Shown one piece after another: positions 8,899 through 27,761 of a stretch of DNA of 64,000 bases. Numbering within the stretch: position 1 is the first letter of the stretch; each line of letters begins with the position of its first letter. Source of the stretch: Pseudolabrys sp. GTDB taxonomy: Bacteria; Pseudomonadota; Alphaproteobacteria; Rhizobiales; Xanthobacteraceae. Below the pieces are notes generated by a model. That model saw only the letters and a program-made list of their open reading frames with translations, was not told the DNA's origin and searched no databases. The stretch lies in assembly GCA_035651255.1 (NCBI GenBank), contig DASRGB010000021.1, positions 9,229-73,228 of the forward strand, read 5' to 3'. The position numbers and the translations under genes are program-made.

Positions 8899-9954
8899 TC
8901 AGCCGCCAGTGACGCTCATATGGCGCGACAGTGCCGGACGCCGGTGGCGGCGGTCGATGACGAAATCATGGCCCTTGGGCTTGCGCGCGATGGCCTCGTC
9001 GATCGCGGCGTAGAGGAGTTCGTTGCCCTCGGAGGCGCGCAGCGGCGCGCGTAGATCGGCGGCGTCGTCGTGGCCGAGACACATGAACAGCGTGCCGGTG
9101 CAGGTGATGCGCACGCGGTTGCACGACTCGCAGAAATTATGCGTCAGCGGCGTGATGAAGCCGAGCCGTCCGCCGGTCTCCTTAACGCGCACATAGCGGG
9201 CCGGGCCGCCGGTGCGGTAATCGATATCGTCGAGCGTGTAGCGCTCGGAGAGCCGCGCTCGCACCATCGACAGCGGCAGATATTGATCGAGCCGGGCCTC
9301 GCCGACGTCGCCAAGCGGCATGACTTCGATGACGGTGAGATCCATGCCGCGGCCGTGCGCCCAGGCGAGCAGGTCGCCAAGCTCGCCTTCATTGACGTCC
9401 TTGAGCGCGACGGCGTTGATCTTGACGTGCAGGCCGGCGGCCTGCGCCGCGTCGATGCCGGCGAGCACCTTATCGAGTTCGCCCCACCGCGTGATGGCGC
9501 GGAATTTTTCGGCATCGAGGGTGTCGAGCGAGACGTTGATGCGTTCGACGCCGAGGGCCTTGAGCTCGGCGGCATATTTGGTCAATTGCGAGCCGTTGGT
9601 GGTCAGTGTGAGCTCTTTGAGCGCGCCGGTTTGCAGGTGGCGCGACAACGACGTCACCAGGGTCATGATGCCGCGGCGCACCAGCGGCTCGCCGCCGGTC
9701 AGACGCAGCTTGGTCACGCCTTTGGCGATGAAGGCGCCGCAGAGACGATCGAGTTCCTCGAGGCTCAGAACATCGGCCTTGGGCAGGAACGTCATGTTTT
9801 CTGACATGCAATAGACGCAGCGGAAATCGCAGCGGTCGGTCACGGAGACGCGCAAATAGGTAATGGCCCGCCGATAGGGGTCGATCAGCGACCGCGGGCT
9901 GCTCGCGGCACGCTCGAGATCAAGCGTCGATGGTGCGTTGTTCCCTGCCATCAT
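8899..9954 (-). CDS. moaA: GTP 3',8-cyclase (molybdenum cofactor biosynthesis)
   Basis: [18 protein letters not shown] radical SAM motif, [10 protein letters not shown]-terminal MSVTGG. Confidence 0.97.
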
Positions 9955-23555: not shown

Positions 23556-24920
23556 ATGGAGCTCAGGCTCTACGATACGCTGACGCGGGACAAGCGGCCC
23601 TTCGTGCCGATCGATCGCTCGCGCGTGCGCATGTATGTCTGCGGGCCGACGGTCTACGACTTCGCCCATATCGGCAATGCCCGGCCGGTGATCGTGTTCG
23701 ACGTGCTGTTCCGCCTGCTGCGCCACATCTACGGGCCGGACCACGTCAGCTATGTGCGCAACGTCACCGACGTCGACGACAAGATCAACGCCCGCGCCGC
23801 CGAGCGCGGCATTTCCATCCGCGAGCTGACGGAGGAGACCTACAGAAACTTCAAGGCCGACGTCGCGGCGCTCGGCTGCCTTGAGCCGACGGTGGAGCCG
23901 CGCGCCACCGAGCACATCGAGCAGATGAAGGAGATCATCGAGCGCTTGGTGAAGAACGGCTGCGCCTACGTGGCGCAGGACCACGTGCTGTTCCACGTCG
24001 CGGCGATGAAAGACTACGGCAGGCTGTCAAATCGCTCGCTCGACGAAATGATCGCCGGGGCGCGCGTCGAGGTGGCGCCGTTCAAGAAGGACCCGATGGA
24101 CTTCGTGCTGTGGAAGCCGTCGAAGCCGGGCGAGCCGTCCTGGCCGTCGCCCGCCGGCATCGCGGCGCCGGGCCGTCCGGGCTGGCACATCGAGTGCTCG
24201 GCCATGGCCTGGAAGCACCTCGGCGAGACCTTCGACATCCACGGCGGCGGCATCGATCTCGTCTTTCCGCACCACGAGAACGAGATCGCGCAGTCGCGCT
24301 GCGCCTTTCATACCAAGGTGATGGCGAATTATTGGATGCACAACGGCTTCTTGCAGGTCGAAGGCGAGAAGATGGCGAAGTCGGCCGGCAATTTCGTCAC
24401 CATCCATGAGTTGCTGCGGGATTGGCCGGGCGAGGTGCTGCGCCTCAATATGCTGCGCACGCATTACCGCCAGCCGATCGACTGGACGGTGAAGGGGCTG
24501 GAGGAGAGCACCAAAGTTCTCGACGGCTGGTACGATCTGACCGCCGATGCCGCGCCCGGCTATCTTTGCGCCGACGCGCTCGATGCCTTGGCGGACGATC
24601 TCAACACACCGAAGGCGCTGGCCGCGCTGCACGAGTTGCGCGCCGAGGCACTCAAGGGCGCAAAGCCGGCGGCGGCCTGTCTCAAAGCCAGCGCGCAATT
24701 GATCGGCGTATTGCAGGGCACCGCCGCCGACTGGAAGGCGCGGCGCCGCGCTTCGGCCGCGATCGACGAAAGTAAGGTGGCCGGCTTGATCGACGCGCGC
24801 AATGCCGCGCGCAAGGCCAAGAACTTCAAGGAGTCCGATCGCATCCGCGACGAACTCGCCGCTATGGGGGTCGTGCTGAAGGATTCCAAGGATGGCACCA
24901 CCTGGGAGATCGCGCGATGA
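23556..24920 (+). CDS. cysS: Cysteine--tRNA ligase
   Basis: [39 protein letters not shown]. Confidence 0.98.
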
Positions 24921-25096
24921 TCGGGGTGACGTGCCGCGCGCTCTTGCCTGCTTCTTTCCCCGCAAGCTGGGGAGCGTTGGGGATGGGGCGCATTGTTCGC
25001 GCGGGAAGCGATAGATGCCCCCTCCCGACGCGCTACACGCGTCGACCTCCCTCGCAAGCGGGGGAGGTGACGGAGAGATGGGAGATCGCGCGATGA
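24903..25096 (+). repeat. 18-bp direct repeat of the cysS 3' end flanking palindromic element 1
   Basis: TGGGAGATCGCGCGATGA at 24903-24920 and 25079-25096. Confidence 0.95.
24951..25070. repeat. Palindromic intergenic element 1 (CIR/RIME-like), degenerate
   Basis: Terminal hairpins CCCCGCAAGCTGGGGAG and CTCCCTCGCAAGCGGGGGAG; about 50 bp near-identical to the element at 26025-26154. Confidence 0.8.
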
Positions 25097-25115
25097 CGGC
25101 GAGGCGCACTCTGAA

Positions 25116-25245
25116 ACCCTCTCCCCTTGTGGGAGAGGGTGCCGAGCGGCGAAGCCGCGAGGCGGGTGAGGGGGCTTTTATCGGCTCCCCCTCACCCGGC
25201 CGTTCGCTGCGCTCGCGTCCACCCTCTCCCACAAGGGGAGAGGGT
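25116..25245. repeat. Palindromic intergenic element 2 (CIR/RIME-like)
   Basis: Perfect 25-bp terminal inverted repeat ACCCTCTCCCCTTGTGGGAGAGGGT, each arm itself a hairpin; internal GGGTGAGGGGG/CCCCCTCACCC repeat. Confidence 0.9.
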
Positions 25246-25262
25246 AAGAAGAGGCTTGCCCG

Positions 25263-25763
25263 ATGAGTGCGCAGGCGCATCCCAAATTGGCGCTGCGGCC
25301 GTTCCTGTCGGCCGACGCGCCGATTCTGGCCGAAATCTTCCGCGCCGCGATCGCGCAACTGACCGGCGACGACTACAGCGAGGCGCAGCAGGAGGCCTGG
25401 GCCTCCGCCGCCGAGGATATCGACGAATTCGGCAGGGACCTCGCCTCGCAACTGACGTTGATCGCGACGCTCGACGGCTCGGCCGTGGGCTTTGCCTCGC
25501 TCGAAGGCAAGGACAAAATTGGAATGCTCTATGTGCACCCGGCGGTGGCCGGGCAGGGGGTCGGCGCCATGCTCATCGACGCGCTGGAGAAGCTCGCCGG
25601 CTCCCGCGGCGTCGCCAGGCTCAGCGTCGATGCCAGCGACAGTGCGCGCGGCTTCTTCGAGAAGCGCGGCTATGTCGCGCAGCAGCGCAACTCGATTTCG
25701 CTTGCCGGCGAATGGCTCGCCAACACCACGCTGCACAAGCAGCTCGCCAAAGGGAGCGCCTGA
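25263..25763 (+). CDS. GNAT family N-acetyltransferase
   Basis: LYVHPAVAGQGVGAML, ARGFFEKRGY. Confidence 0.9.
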   Translation: MSAQAHPKLALRPFLSADAPILAEIFRAAIAQLTGDDYSEAQQEAWASAAEDIDEFGRDLASQLTLIATLDGSAVGFASLEGKDKIGMLYVHPAVAGQGVGAMLIDALEKLAGSRGVARLSVDASDSARGFFEKRGYVAQQRNSISLAGEWLANTTLHKQLAKGSA

Positions 25764-25879: not shown

Positions 25880-25965
25880 TGGAAATCCGGCGTCACCATA
25901 TCGTGCTGGCTGTCGTCGCGCTCATCGTCGCGATCGCGGTGGCCGCGAACTATTACCTGTGGTGA
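25879..25965 (+). CDS. Small single-TM protein (28 aa)
   Basis: MEIRRHHIVLAVVALIVAIAVAANYYLW; TGATG overlap with the previous ORF. Confidence 0.5.
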   Translation: MEIRRHHIVLAVVALIVAIAVAANYYLW

Positions 25966-25970
25966 GAACA

Positions 25971-26022
25971 ATGGCGCGGGAGCGGCTTTATCTCTGCGAC
26001 ACCACGCTGCGCGACGGCGCGC
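25971..26022 (+). pseudogene. Displaced duplicate 5' end of cimA
   Basis: Encodes MARERLYLCDTTLRDGA versus cimA MKERLYLFDTTLRDGA, then runs into palindromic element 3. Confidence 0.85.
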
Positions 26023-26024
26023 CC

Positions 26025-26154
26025 TTCTTCTCCCTCCCCCGCTTGCGGGGGGAGGGTTGGGGAGGGTGCTCTTTGCACTTGGGCGTCCCGAAAAGCGCCC
26101 CCTTCCGACGCGCTACGCGCGTCGACCTCCCCCGCAAGCGGGGGAGATGAAGAA
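26025..26154. repeat. Palindromic intergenic element 3 (same family as element 1)
   Basis: Inverted arms CTCCCCCGCTTGCGGGGGGAG and CTCCCCCGCAAGCGGGGGAG, with outer TTCTTC/GAAGAA. Confidence 0.9.
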
Positions 26155-26168
26155 AAGAGAGGCCGCCG

Positions 26169-27761
26169 ATGAAAGAACGCCTCTACCTGTTCGACACGAC
26201 GTTGCGGGATGGCGCGCAGACCAACGGCGTCGACTTCACGCTCGCCGACAAGCTGGCGATCGCCCAAATGCTCGACGAGCTAGGCATCGACTATGTCGAA
26301 GGCGGCTATCCCGGCGCCAACCAGACCGACAGCGAATTGTTCGCCAGGGACCGCGAGCTGAAGACGACGTTCACCGCTTTCGGCATGACGCGGCGGCCGG
26401 GGCGCTCCGCTTCGAACGATCCGGGCCTTGCCGCCTTGCTCGAAGCGAAAGCCGACGCCATCTGCTTCGTCGCCAAGTCGTGGGACTATCACGTCAAGGT
26501 CGCGCTCGAGACCACCGAGGCGGAAAACCTCGCCTCGATCCGCGACAGCGTGCGTGCCGCCAAGGCGAAGGGCCGCGAAGTGCTGCTCGACTGCGAGCAT
26601 TTCTTCGACGGCTACAAGGCCAACCCCAGCTACGCGCTGGCCTGCGCCAAGGCGGCCTACGACGAGGGCGCGCGCTGGGTCGTGCTGTGCGACACCAATG
26701 GCGGCACGCTGCCGCACGAGGTGGAAGCGATCGTCGCCGCGGTCTGCAAGGTCATCCCCGGCGATCGCGTCGGCATCCACGCCCACAACGACACCGAGCA
26801 GGCGGTGGCCAATTCGTTCGCCGCCGTGCGCGCCGGCGCCCGCCAGATCCAGGGCACGCTCAACGGTCTCGGCGAGCGCTGCGGCAACGCCAACCTGGTC
26901 TCGCTCATTCCGACGCTCAAGCTCAAGCGGGAATTCGCCGACCGCTTCGACATCGGCGTCAGCGACGCCGCGTTGAAGAAGCTCGCGCAGGTCAGCCACG
27001 CCCTCGACGAGCGGCTCAACCGCGCCCCCGACCGCCACGCGCCCTATGTCGGCGACAGCGCCTTTGCCACCAAGGCCGGTATTCACGCCTCCGCCATCAA
27101 GAAAGACCCGGCGACCTACGAGCACGTCGCGCCGGAGCGCGTCGGCAACAAGCGCAAGGTGCTGGTGTCGGAGCAGGCGGGACGCTCGAACGTGCTGGCC
27201 GAGCTCGACCGCATCGGCCTCAAGGTCGACAAAAACGACAGCCGCATCGGCCGCCTCCTGGAGATCGTCAAGGAGCGCGAGGCCATCGGCTATGCCTACG
27301 AGGCGGCGGACGCCTCCTTCGAGCTGCTGGCGCGGCGCACGCTCGGCACGGTGCCGAATTTCTTCGACGTCACCCAGTTCGACGTCAATGTCGAGCAGCG
27401 CAACAATGCCAAGGGCGAGCGCGTCACCGTCACGCTGGCCGTGGTCAAGGTGAAGATCGGCGACGACAACATGATCTCGGCGGCCGAGGGCAACGGCCCG
27501 GTCAACGCGCTCGACCTGGCGCTGCGCAAGGACCTCGGCAAGTACCAGAAATACATCGACGACCTCAAGCTCACCGACTACCGCGTCCGTATTCTCAACG
27601 GCGGCACCGAGGCGGTGACGCGCGTTTTGATCGAGAGCGAGGACGGACAGGGCGAGCGCTGGACCACCATCGGCGTGTCGGCCAATATCATCGACGCCTC
27701 GTTCCAGGCGCTGATGGATTCGATTATCTACAAGCTGGTGAAGTCGGGCGCGCCGGGTTAA
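26169..27761 (+). CDS. cimA: Citramalate synthase (LeuA-like)
   Basis: DTTLRDGAQ, EGGYPGAN, CDTNGG, HAHND, GERCGNANL, C-terminal regulatory domain. Confidence 0.93.
   Translation: MKERLYLFDTTLRDGAQTNGVDFTLADKLAIAQMLDELGIDYVEGGYPGANQTDSELFARDRELKTTFTAFGMTRRPGRSASNDPGLAALLEAKADAICFVAKSWDYHVKVALETTEAENLASIRDSVRAAKAKGREVLLDCEHFFDGYKANPSYALACAKAAYDEGARWVVLCDTNGGTLPHEVEAIVAAVCKVIPGDRVGIHAHNDTEQAVANSFAAVRAGARQIQGTLNGLGERCGNANLVSLIPTLKLKREFADRFDIGVSDAALKKLAQVSHALDERLNRAPDRHAPYVGDSAFATKAGIHASAIKKDPATYEHVAPERVGNKRKVLVSEQAGRSNVLAELDRIGLKVDKNDSRIGRLLEIVKEREAIGYAYEAADASFELLARRTLGTVPNFFDVTQFDVNVEQRNNAKGERVTVTLAVVKVKIGDDNMISAAEGNGPVNALDLALRKDLGKYQKYIDDLKLTDYRVRILNGGTEAVTRVLIESEDGQGERWTTIGVSANIIDASFQALMDSIIYKLVKSGAPG

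Follow-up and report, generated by a model that had tools for sequence, protein, structure and literature searches.

The window analyzed in this work, i.e., the whole stretch of 64,000 nucleotides (positions 9,229 to 73,228 of contig DASRGB010000021.1), originates from a 4.0-Mb metagenome-assembled genome (MAG) of Pseudolabrys sp. composed of 98 contigs, and it carries a cimA gene whose first codons occur twice, on both sides of a palindromic repeat. The sequence and the list of its open reading frames (ORFs) revealed on the forward strand a chain composed of cysS, a palindromic repeat, a GNAT acetyltransferase gene, two micro-ORFs, a truncated cimA start of the native type (R), a palindromic element, and finally cimA itself, which opens with a second, live start (D) (Table 1). 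In a profile search, the CimA protein scored 638.9 bits against the TIGR00977 equivalog (cut-off 450) over residues 5–526, and the gene encodes a true citramalate synthase of the isoleucine pathway. No family match was found for either of the two micro-ORFs (38 and 27 aa); the end of the second one lies 5 nt ahead of R.

R begins with ATG (25971) and continues with GCG CGG GAG CGG CTT TAT CTC TGC GAC ACC ACG CTG CGC GAC GGC GCG C, while D begins with ATG (26169) followed by AAA GAA CGC CTC TAC CTG TTC GAC ACG ACG TTG CGG GAT GGC GCG CAG, which translates into MKERLYLFDTTLRDGAQ. Over the 14 aligned codons (from E to A), nine differ synonymously, one non-synonymously (TGC/TTC, Cys/Phe), and four are identical; both copies are closed by GGCGCGC (26016–26022 in R and 26211–26217 in D). 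These are exactly the counts given by the sequence-only reading, whose claim of two recoded cimA starts around a palindrome was thus confirmed. The duplicated segment spans 43–52 nt, with 10 differences in 43 nt, and in addition the untranslated regions (UTRs) differ and one codon is missing. The cimA gene remains intact because a complete second start, with its Shine-Dalgarno (SD) sequence, ATG, and the same codons, is present 3' of the repeat. A paralogue as the source of R was rejected, as tblastn searches of the whole genome with both N-termini gave cimA itself as the best match, followed by leuA (KDRVVIFDTTLRDG) on contig C29.

Table 1. Features of the cysS–cimA region (positions within the window) and gene 3'-end duplications on other contigs of the genome (C).
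Feature	Position	Strand	Remarks
cysS	23556-24920	+	
cysS end, copy 1	24903-24920	+	last 5 codons and stop, TGGGAGATCGCGCGATGA; first copy of an exact 18-nt direct repeat
Second copy of the cimA repeat family	24921-25078	+	exactly at the junction of cysS and the next gene; clusters with the cimA copy
cysS end, copy 2	25079-25096	+	restores SD and ATG; remnant start ATGACGGCGAGG... only
Remnant gene start	25093-25262		ATGACGGCGAGGCGC...
Second repeat family	25116-25245		CCCTCTCCCC..GGGAGAGGG units
GNAT acetyltransferase gene	25263-25763	+	
Micro-ORF, 38 aa	25763-25880	+	hydrophobic; chained to GNAT by a TGATG overlap
Micro-ORF, 27 aa	25880-25965	+	hydrophobic; chained to the first micro-ORF by a TGATG overlap
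R, retained native-type cimA start	25971-26022	+	MARERLYLCDTTLRDGA; 17 codons, truncated after GGCGCGC
Upstream ORF (R and read-through of the repeat)	25971-26150	+	59 codons; stop TGA at 26148-26150, 18 nt before the live ATG
Palindromic GC-rich repeat	about 26023-26158		~135 bp; no strand
GAGAGG	26157-26162	+	putative SD on the 3' side of the hairpin base; ATG of D 6 nt further on
D, live cimA start	26169-26217	+	MKERLYLFDTTLRDGA; synonymously different copy of R
cimA, citramalate synthase	26169-27761	+	530 aa
Gene 3'-end duplications outside the window	C32:45525-45767; C89:7203-7530; C66:46160-46370; C41:2954-3270		

The element at cimA has perfect 18-nt inverted arms (26034–26051 and 26129–26146, 100% complementary), and its ends pair with each other, the left one being pyrimidine-rich and the right one purine-rich. 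The left unit (26032–26066) has the form C9 – loop – G9 – TT – G8, and the other parts are a central stem, a small GTCGAC-type hairpin, and a right C9/G9 hairpin (26125–26146). RNA folding of the region 25960–26200 gave −126.6 kcal/mol (z = −5.4 versus shuffled sequences). A known RNA family was rejected, since Rfam yielded only sub-threshold chance matches to plant and animal miRNA models. The unit was also compared with the TMECO repeats. The strict TMECO/PIT consensus (CCCTC(N)CCC, loop 3–6, GGGNGAGGG, loop 3, GGGNGAGGG) had no matches in the window and 14 in the genome, and a relaxed pattern (loop 3–7, second loop 1–4, second block GGG(N)GAGGG) matched the left unit and 28 genome sites. 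By its sequence, the cimA unit thus appears to resemble a TMECO unit, not being a strict member.

The repeat family consists of C9/G9 hairpin units of the TMECO/PIT kind and is dispersed in the genome (48–71 BLAST matches, including 12 near-full-length copies); terminal inverted repeats and multiple scattered copies are features that it shares with miniature inverted-repeat transposable elements (MITEs). At 28 copies the longest flanking direct repeats had 5–10 nt and lay at variable distances, which is the background level, the exact ends of the element not being set by pairs of filled (cimA start with element) and empty (single start, no insert) alleles; long flanking repeats, present at the cimA loci, were not found at the 28 other paired copies of the genome and are thus not a family trait. 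Moreover, a peptide-level test of 75 family copies showed gene-end copies flanking only the cimA ones, and therefore the family as such is not a gene-end-replacing element. A REP-associated tyrosine transposase (RAYT) was considered as the mobilizer and rejected: the sole PF01797 match (C49:13496-13786, 25.3 bits) adjoins a GTAG-type repeat (GTAGGGTGGGCAAAGGC) and not a repeat of this family. This match is a RAYT-like Y1 transposase gene in a 178-aa frame with inverted GTAG-type repeats on either side.

Distribution and divergence of the two starts

The cimA gene was located in 58 of 61 related genomes, and upstream regions were taken from 40 of them. All but five of the approximately 40 species examined have a single start, which in most relatives directly follows a micro-ORF. 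Two contexts can be distinguished, i.e., type A, with one micro-ORF ahead (TGAGGnCGCC(n)ATG), and type B, with two (TGGTGAnnnnATG); the window belongs to the latter, and the second micro-ORF is present only in part of the genus. Genomes G005 and G006 share the window layout, that is, a native-type start fragment, the element, and then ATGAAAGAACG. Scanning all species-representative genomes for this pattern added two filled MAGs, G063 (Pseudolabrys sp.) and G062, and a metagenome scan added the filled contigs L177, L178, L179, and L181. The layout is therefore present in eight further Pseudolabrys-like lineages, scattered among about 30 insert-free species. In the cimA body, the filled lineages have a mutual identity of approximately 85%, and the cimA tree places them in four or more clades, each beside empty sister species. 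The stretch forming the window itself is present in seven public metagenome runs.

The scan of the species-representative genomes also disclosed a related, differently joined arrangement in six Bradyrhizobium species and one Bradyrhizobium-like MAG (L145/G064). In this group the native cimA start overlaps the GNAT stop as ATGA (ATGAGCAAGGAGCGCCTTTAT...), and the filled loci keep just six native codons before the element and have a new start (MNSVKKERLYLF) after it. The analogous arrangement occurs in complete genomes of isolates (B. centrosematis LMG 29515 and Bradyrhizobium sp. PUT101).

Three further observations concern individual loci. In L141 (B. frederickii), approximately 250 nt of other, nested repeats stand in place of the left half of the element or break it up, and the upstream frame still reaches the ATGA at the live start. 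In L176 (the long-read MAG G062), the cimA frame ends after approximately 204 codons, which is either a frameshift or a sequencing error. Element-free, in-frame tandem duplications of the cimA start were found in L091 (G024; MAQERL-KERLYLF, 12 nt) and L171 (Bradyrhizobium G091; tccacacATGACCCGT / tccgacATGACTCGC, 15 nt), and these could be precursors or footprints of the cassette (as the repeat together with D is called here).

Across eight filled loci (87 aligned codons), R and D differ at 44 codons synonymously and at one non-synonymously. The probability of a random substitution in such codons being synonymous is 0.25, and if a neutral copy had undergone at least 10 changes, the probability of at most one non-synonymous change among them would be 3e-5. 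Such a synonymous excess over eight loci excludes, for R and D, a local duplication with one copy drifting, which agrees with the sequence-only reading that the two copies are not a recent local duplicate. Furthermore, the divergence between R and D equals or exceeds that between the native starts of different species (4.6 vs. 3.3 differences per nine codons and 7 vs. 4.4 per 14).

The two copies also differ in their affinities. R bears residues 2–3 of the host clade, namely MTR in G005 as in its sister G025, and MAK in G062 and G063 as in G035. The expectation that empty alleles would carry one start similar to the upstream copy proved right; e.g., the R fragment of G005 and the native start of the empty G025 are identical at 35 of 36 nt. 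In five of five genomes, a manual count placed R nearer than D to the closest empty relative. D copies, in turn, all read M/V-K-E and lack codon 2, even where the host start has an Arg codon (CGN), 2–3 substitutions away, and their UTR is type-A-like even in type-B hosts. These affinities suggest that R follows the host lineage and D follows the cassette. In each lineage, R would accordingly have belonged to a functional cimA until not long ago, which would explain why it differs from D almost exclusively at synonymous sites, and D would have served as a working start over a long history of its own. The core of the sequence-only reading, namely different histories of the two starts, is thus supported, now by eight loci. 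Its proposal that D is an incoming cimA start is supported in part, by the lineage signature across host clades (MK, codon 2 missing, type-A-like UTR); nothing found supports a mobile element with a lost or trans-acting nuclease. Sliding-window identities detected no trace of a foreign segment in the cimA body, at a resolution that is poor with species at least 10% apart.

It should be stressed that dead copies do decay. The R fragments of Bradyrhizobium (MSKQRL, MSKEHL, MNKQRP vs. native MSKERLYLF) have accumulated non-synonymous changes, and the R of L178 has a 14-nt deletion. As decay is seen elsewhere, the pristine R in the Pseudolabrys-like genus is a real contrast and not the default expectation.

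The cassettes form two groups. Group I gathers those of this genome and G005 (79% identical) and group II the rest (72–83%), the identity between groups being 62–68%, with saturated loops. A single recent spread was rejected, since cassettes of different species are only 62–83% identical, and the cassettes are old lineages rather than a recently spreading element. Two junctions with cimA were found, after codon 12 (ACC ACG) and after codon 17 (GGC GCG C), the latter in this genome, L179, and L181. Neither junction type nor host clade tracks the cassette groups. At both junctions there is CGC(G) microhomology to the left end of the element itself, and the two forms differ by the 15 nt between CGC repeats.

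No ORF was found inside any cassette, and no nuclease ORF in the nine loci of the genus or the seven Bradyrhizobium-type loci. The sequence-only reading had foreseen longer alleles carrying a nuclease ORF; the sole longer one, that of B. frederickii, contains nested repeats only. An integrase-type system, defined by a recombinase gene and a single fixed crossover core, does not describe the locus, which has no cassette ORF and two junctions. The idea of a mobile gene-end-replacing element was not borne out either, considering the two junctions without a single site-specific core and the flanking gene ends being confined to the cimA copies among the 75 tested.

The upstream reading frame and translation of cimA

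The frame opened by R, referred to here as the upstream ORF (uORF), spans the whole element (59–70 codons) and stops on the D start in seven of eight loci of the genus and five of six Bradyrhizobium loci, the stop and start overlapping as ATGA, TGATG, or TAATG. The lengths of group II cassettes (151 vs. 160 nt) keep the frame, changing by multiples of 3. The shared odd start ATGA-AA is accounted for because the A after ATG supplies the uORF stop, and the 18-nt gap of the window because the left hairpin contains an additional G, by which the frame is shifted.

In the native state, cimA is without exception in tight coupling with the ORF ahead of it. Ribosomes starting at R, coupled to the upstream micro-ORFs, would melt the hairpin, terminate on or just before the ATG of D, and re-initiate there, and cimA would thereby stay coupled to its operon despite the hairpin. 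The geometry of the frames thus suggests that translation from R opens the hairpin and hands ribosomes over to D. Two other roles were considered and rejected. Runs of Ile, Leu, or Val codons are absent from the uORF, which speaks against an attenuator-type leader, and the uORF is out of frame with D, which has its own SD and ATG, so neither a fusion nor a bypass applies.

Possible histories of the filled alleles

The explanation that we regard as the best, and on balance as probable, is an old filled/empty polymorphism exchanged by homologous recombination of the host and accompanied by translational re-coupling. The filled allele would then be an old insertion/deletion polymorphism of the Pseudolabrys-like genus, and D with the repeat would constitute a long-lived cassette lineage in which D evolves as a working start. 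The duplicated conserved start would act as the left recombination arm and the cimA body as the right one; to the left of the element only R is well conserved (the micro-ORF region is variable), and to the right the first 60 nt of cimA are 95% identical. Two crossovers, one within R and the other within the cimA body, could introduce the element with D into an empty allele, overwrite R with the sequence of an empty allele, or remove the cassette. Filled alleles with identical copies would be deleted fastest and those persisting would have diverged copies: because palindromes between direct repeats are prone to precise deletion, cassettes with diverged copies should last longest.

A bolder version, which we put forward only tentatively, treats the palindrome with its spare start as an enzyme-free, self-perpetuating unit that brings its own homology arms, could be placed by host recombination in the cimA of any related genome, and is rendered harmless by the uORF; selection at the element level would favor cassettes with silent differences between the arms, as these resist deletion. 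If this is true, selfish DNA would have one more means of persisting within essential genes, beside introns, inteins, and bypass elements.

Several points weigh against the exchange of filled and empty alleles. The set contains no near-identical filled/empty genome pair, and a recombination breakpoint was not seen. The distance between species is at least 10%, and a tree cannot be built from a duplicated segment as short as 36–50 nt; recombination across 10–15% divergence with a left arm of 36–50 nt would be rare. The occurrence of both junctions in both cassette groups requires recurrent 15-nt CGC-CGC deletions or recombination between cassettes. As to the re-coupling, it is a matter of geometry only, and in the window the uORF stops 18 nt upstream and not on the ATG. 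Finally, the cassettes are as diverged as their hosts (62–83%), which fits vertical descent with many losses equally well.

Such a vertical inheritance would comprise one ancestral insertion and many losses by recombination between R and D, with R kept since the N-terminal peptide or codons of the uORF have a role, e.g., as a leader tuning cimA translation. Besides the divergence of the cassettes, it is favored by the conserved uORF frame and stop-start overlap, and by G062 and G063, whose group II cassettes are probably orthologous and whose R copies differ at only three sites, all of them third codon positions. However, vertical descent would need another reason for the conservation of R at the amino-acid level, and no known role requires a leader that copies the N-terminus of the enzyme itself; in Bradyrhizobium and L178, R decays without loss of the arrangement. 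Moreover, R carries the host-clade residues 2–3 and stands in both type A and type B contexts, so that recombination on the left side is needed anyway, and the cassette groups are not separated by junction type. We therefore consider this scenario unlikely, although it is the most serious competitor of the allele exchange.

A homing-type miniature element appears more doubtful still. In this scenario a nuclease acting in trans would cut the empty cimA at the DTTLRDG codons, and repair would copy in the palindrome and spare start, destroying the target. The restriction to only two junction positions, inside the most conserved codons, in nine lineages would suit such an element, as would the host-like R and cassette-like D, the patchy distribution, and the independent occupation of the same gene start in Bradyrhizobium. 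Nevertheless, neither the cassettes nor their immediate surroundings contain a nuclease ORF, longer alleles are equally devoid of one, the other 70-odd family copies lack gene-end copies, the cassettes are old, diverged, and not recently spread, and the CGC microhomology at both junctions is equally expected from illegitimate joining.

An ordinary local event, i.e., a separate insertion in each species with a long target duplication (or into a prior tandem duplication) followed by divergence in place, is very improbable for R and D. Such duplications do arise, as exemplified by the exact 18-nt cysS-end duplication in the window and in G017, the element-free tandem cimA-start duplications in G024 and Bradyrhizobium L171, and other long duplications around repeats in this genome; in G005 the two copies differ at only three of nine codons. 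The 44:1 ratio of synonymous to non-synonymous differences is, however, incompatible with one drifting copy and strongly disfavors this origin. D has a codon deletion, R-to-K changes needing 2–3 substitutions (in this genome and G006), and an unrelated UTR, the rest being silent; the same derived start recurs in all D copies across different hosts, and the R–D divergence exceeds that of native starts between species.

An assembly or binning artefact joining the cimA starts of two strains across the repeat, a thought invited by the 98-contig MAG and by repeats being classic chimera points, is hardly credible, as the same architecture occurs in complete isolate genomes, long-read MAGs with megabase contigs, and independent metagenome contigs, with conserved frame and stop-start overlap.

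Gene-end duplications at other sites and comparison with known systems

The second family copy in the window is likewise associated with a duplicated gene end, that of cysS, and the 18-mer involved holds the SD and ATG used by the next gene in a native ATGA overlap. In G017 the cysS end is duplicated with identical boundaries around a different repeat family, both copies sharing two species-specific substitutions. The duplications in the window and in G017 may be either independent events at one precise site or the outcome of concerted evolution. In G018 and G030, the second copy of the cysS end has decayed to little more than the SD and ATG. The remnant start behind the second copy resembles that of a GFA/CENP-V-like Cys-rich gene; a gene of this kind lies between cysS and the GNAT gene in G017, G024, G014, G009, and G035 and is gone in the window, where its place is occupied by a second repeat family with units close to E. 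coli TMECO.

A wobble-tolerant scan of the genome for direct repeats, which was noisy and whose seed missed even the cimA pair, revealed four gene 3'-end duplications of 45–97 nt flanking other palindromic repeat families (Table 1). The C32 copies differ by three synonymous codons and one non-synonymous, and in C89 the dead copy has a 4-nt deletion. Palindrome-associated gene-end duplication, whose absence from other loci would have refuted the sequence-only reading by its own terms, thus occurs at the cysS end (window and G017), C32, C89, C66, and C41 and is not a one-off.

The locus exemplifies that a core biosynthetic gene can harbor a structured repeat in its first codons without any cost when its start is duplicated and an upstream frame reads through the repeat to the new start codon, and the culturable Bradyrhizobium isolates offer a concrete, testable example. 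A near-purely synonymous difference between copies may serve as a general diagnostic, indicating that a "dead" copy was alive until recently and pointing to frequent exchange of filled and empty alleles across species. If the duplicated start truly acts as homology arms, small repeats would have a simple, enzyme-free route of spread. Annotation pipelines and gene callers would systematically miss such cases, reporting a spurious small ORF and a "normal" gene.

Among known repeats, the intrastrand-triplex/BoxC/PIT/TMECO repeats of Proteobacteria have unusually variable flanks and are deletion hot spots (Holder et al. 2015, PMC4666352), the flank deletions at TMECO being ascribed to stalling, slippage, or illegitimate recombination (PMC4666352). 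The cimA unit shares with TMECO the order of its blocks, in which short loops separate a C-rich 9-mer, a G-rich 9-mer, and a second G block, as well as the occurrence of dispersed, mostly intergenic copies in inverted pairs. It differs in fitting only the relaxed consensus (second loop of 2 nt, second G block of 8 nt) and in belonging to a larger composite palindrome (~135–160 bp) placed inside a coding start, between two versions of it; composite palindrome, coding-start position, and two flanking start versions have not been described for TMECO.

Insertion with long target duplication is known for restriction-modification inserts, with repeats of 44/46 and 47/47 (Nobusato et al. 2000; Furuta et al. 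2010, PMC2853133). The cimA locus resembles it in the transposase-less insert and in direct repeats of more than 30 bp, often at a gene end, which correspond to one copy in insert-free genomes. In contrast, the cimA insert is a non-coding palindrome, and its repeats are not near-identical but 77–89% identical, with nearly all differences silent and one copy having a different UTR and start; the 18-nt repeats of the cysS end, unlike R and D, are identical.

Intragenic repetitive extragenic palindromic sequences (REPs) and related repeats (Rickettsia palindromic elements, or RPEs; GTAG/CGTC REPs, Di Nocera et al. 2013, PMC3733652; Correia and ERIC sequences) are tolerated in or at the ends of ORFs, may be read through in frame, and may supply a stop or start; at the N-termini of ORFs with REPs, translation probably starts downstream (PMC3733652). 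Those cases are in-frame insertions or simple re-starts, and neither a retained native start with a synonymously different second start nor a uORF stop/ATG overlap kept across species is described in the REP, RPE, and MITE literature compared. The only RAYT-like gene of the genome is tied to a different REP.

Islands and phages targeting tRNA and tmRNA genes use an integrase and a fixed core at the 3' ends of RNA genes, and they carry a replacement gene end. Here, too, the gene is left intact by the insert's own copy of the end, and the host-derived and element-derived copies differ; however, the cimA case involves no recombinase, two junctions, the 5' end of a protein-coding gene, and an insert of only about 190 bp. 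In translational coupling, stops and starts overlap (ATGA, TGATG) and uORFs unmask structured start sites. The cimA uORF similarly ends on the downstream start, with an SD-like purine tract in or at the foot of a stable stem, but it consists of a fossil copy of the downstream gene's start and a mobile repeat, and its coupling to cimA is putative. In summary, the locus combines an intragenic palindromic repeat and an insertion with long target duplication, both of kinds already known, and its unusual features, not described in the literature compared, are the synonymously different duplicate starts and a uORF ending on the new start codon.

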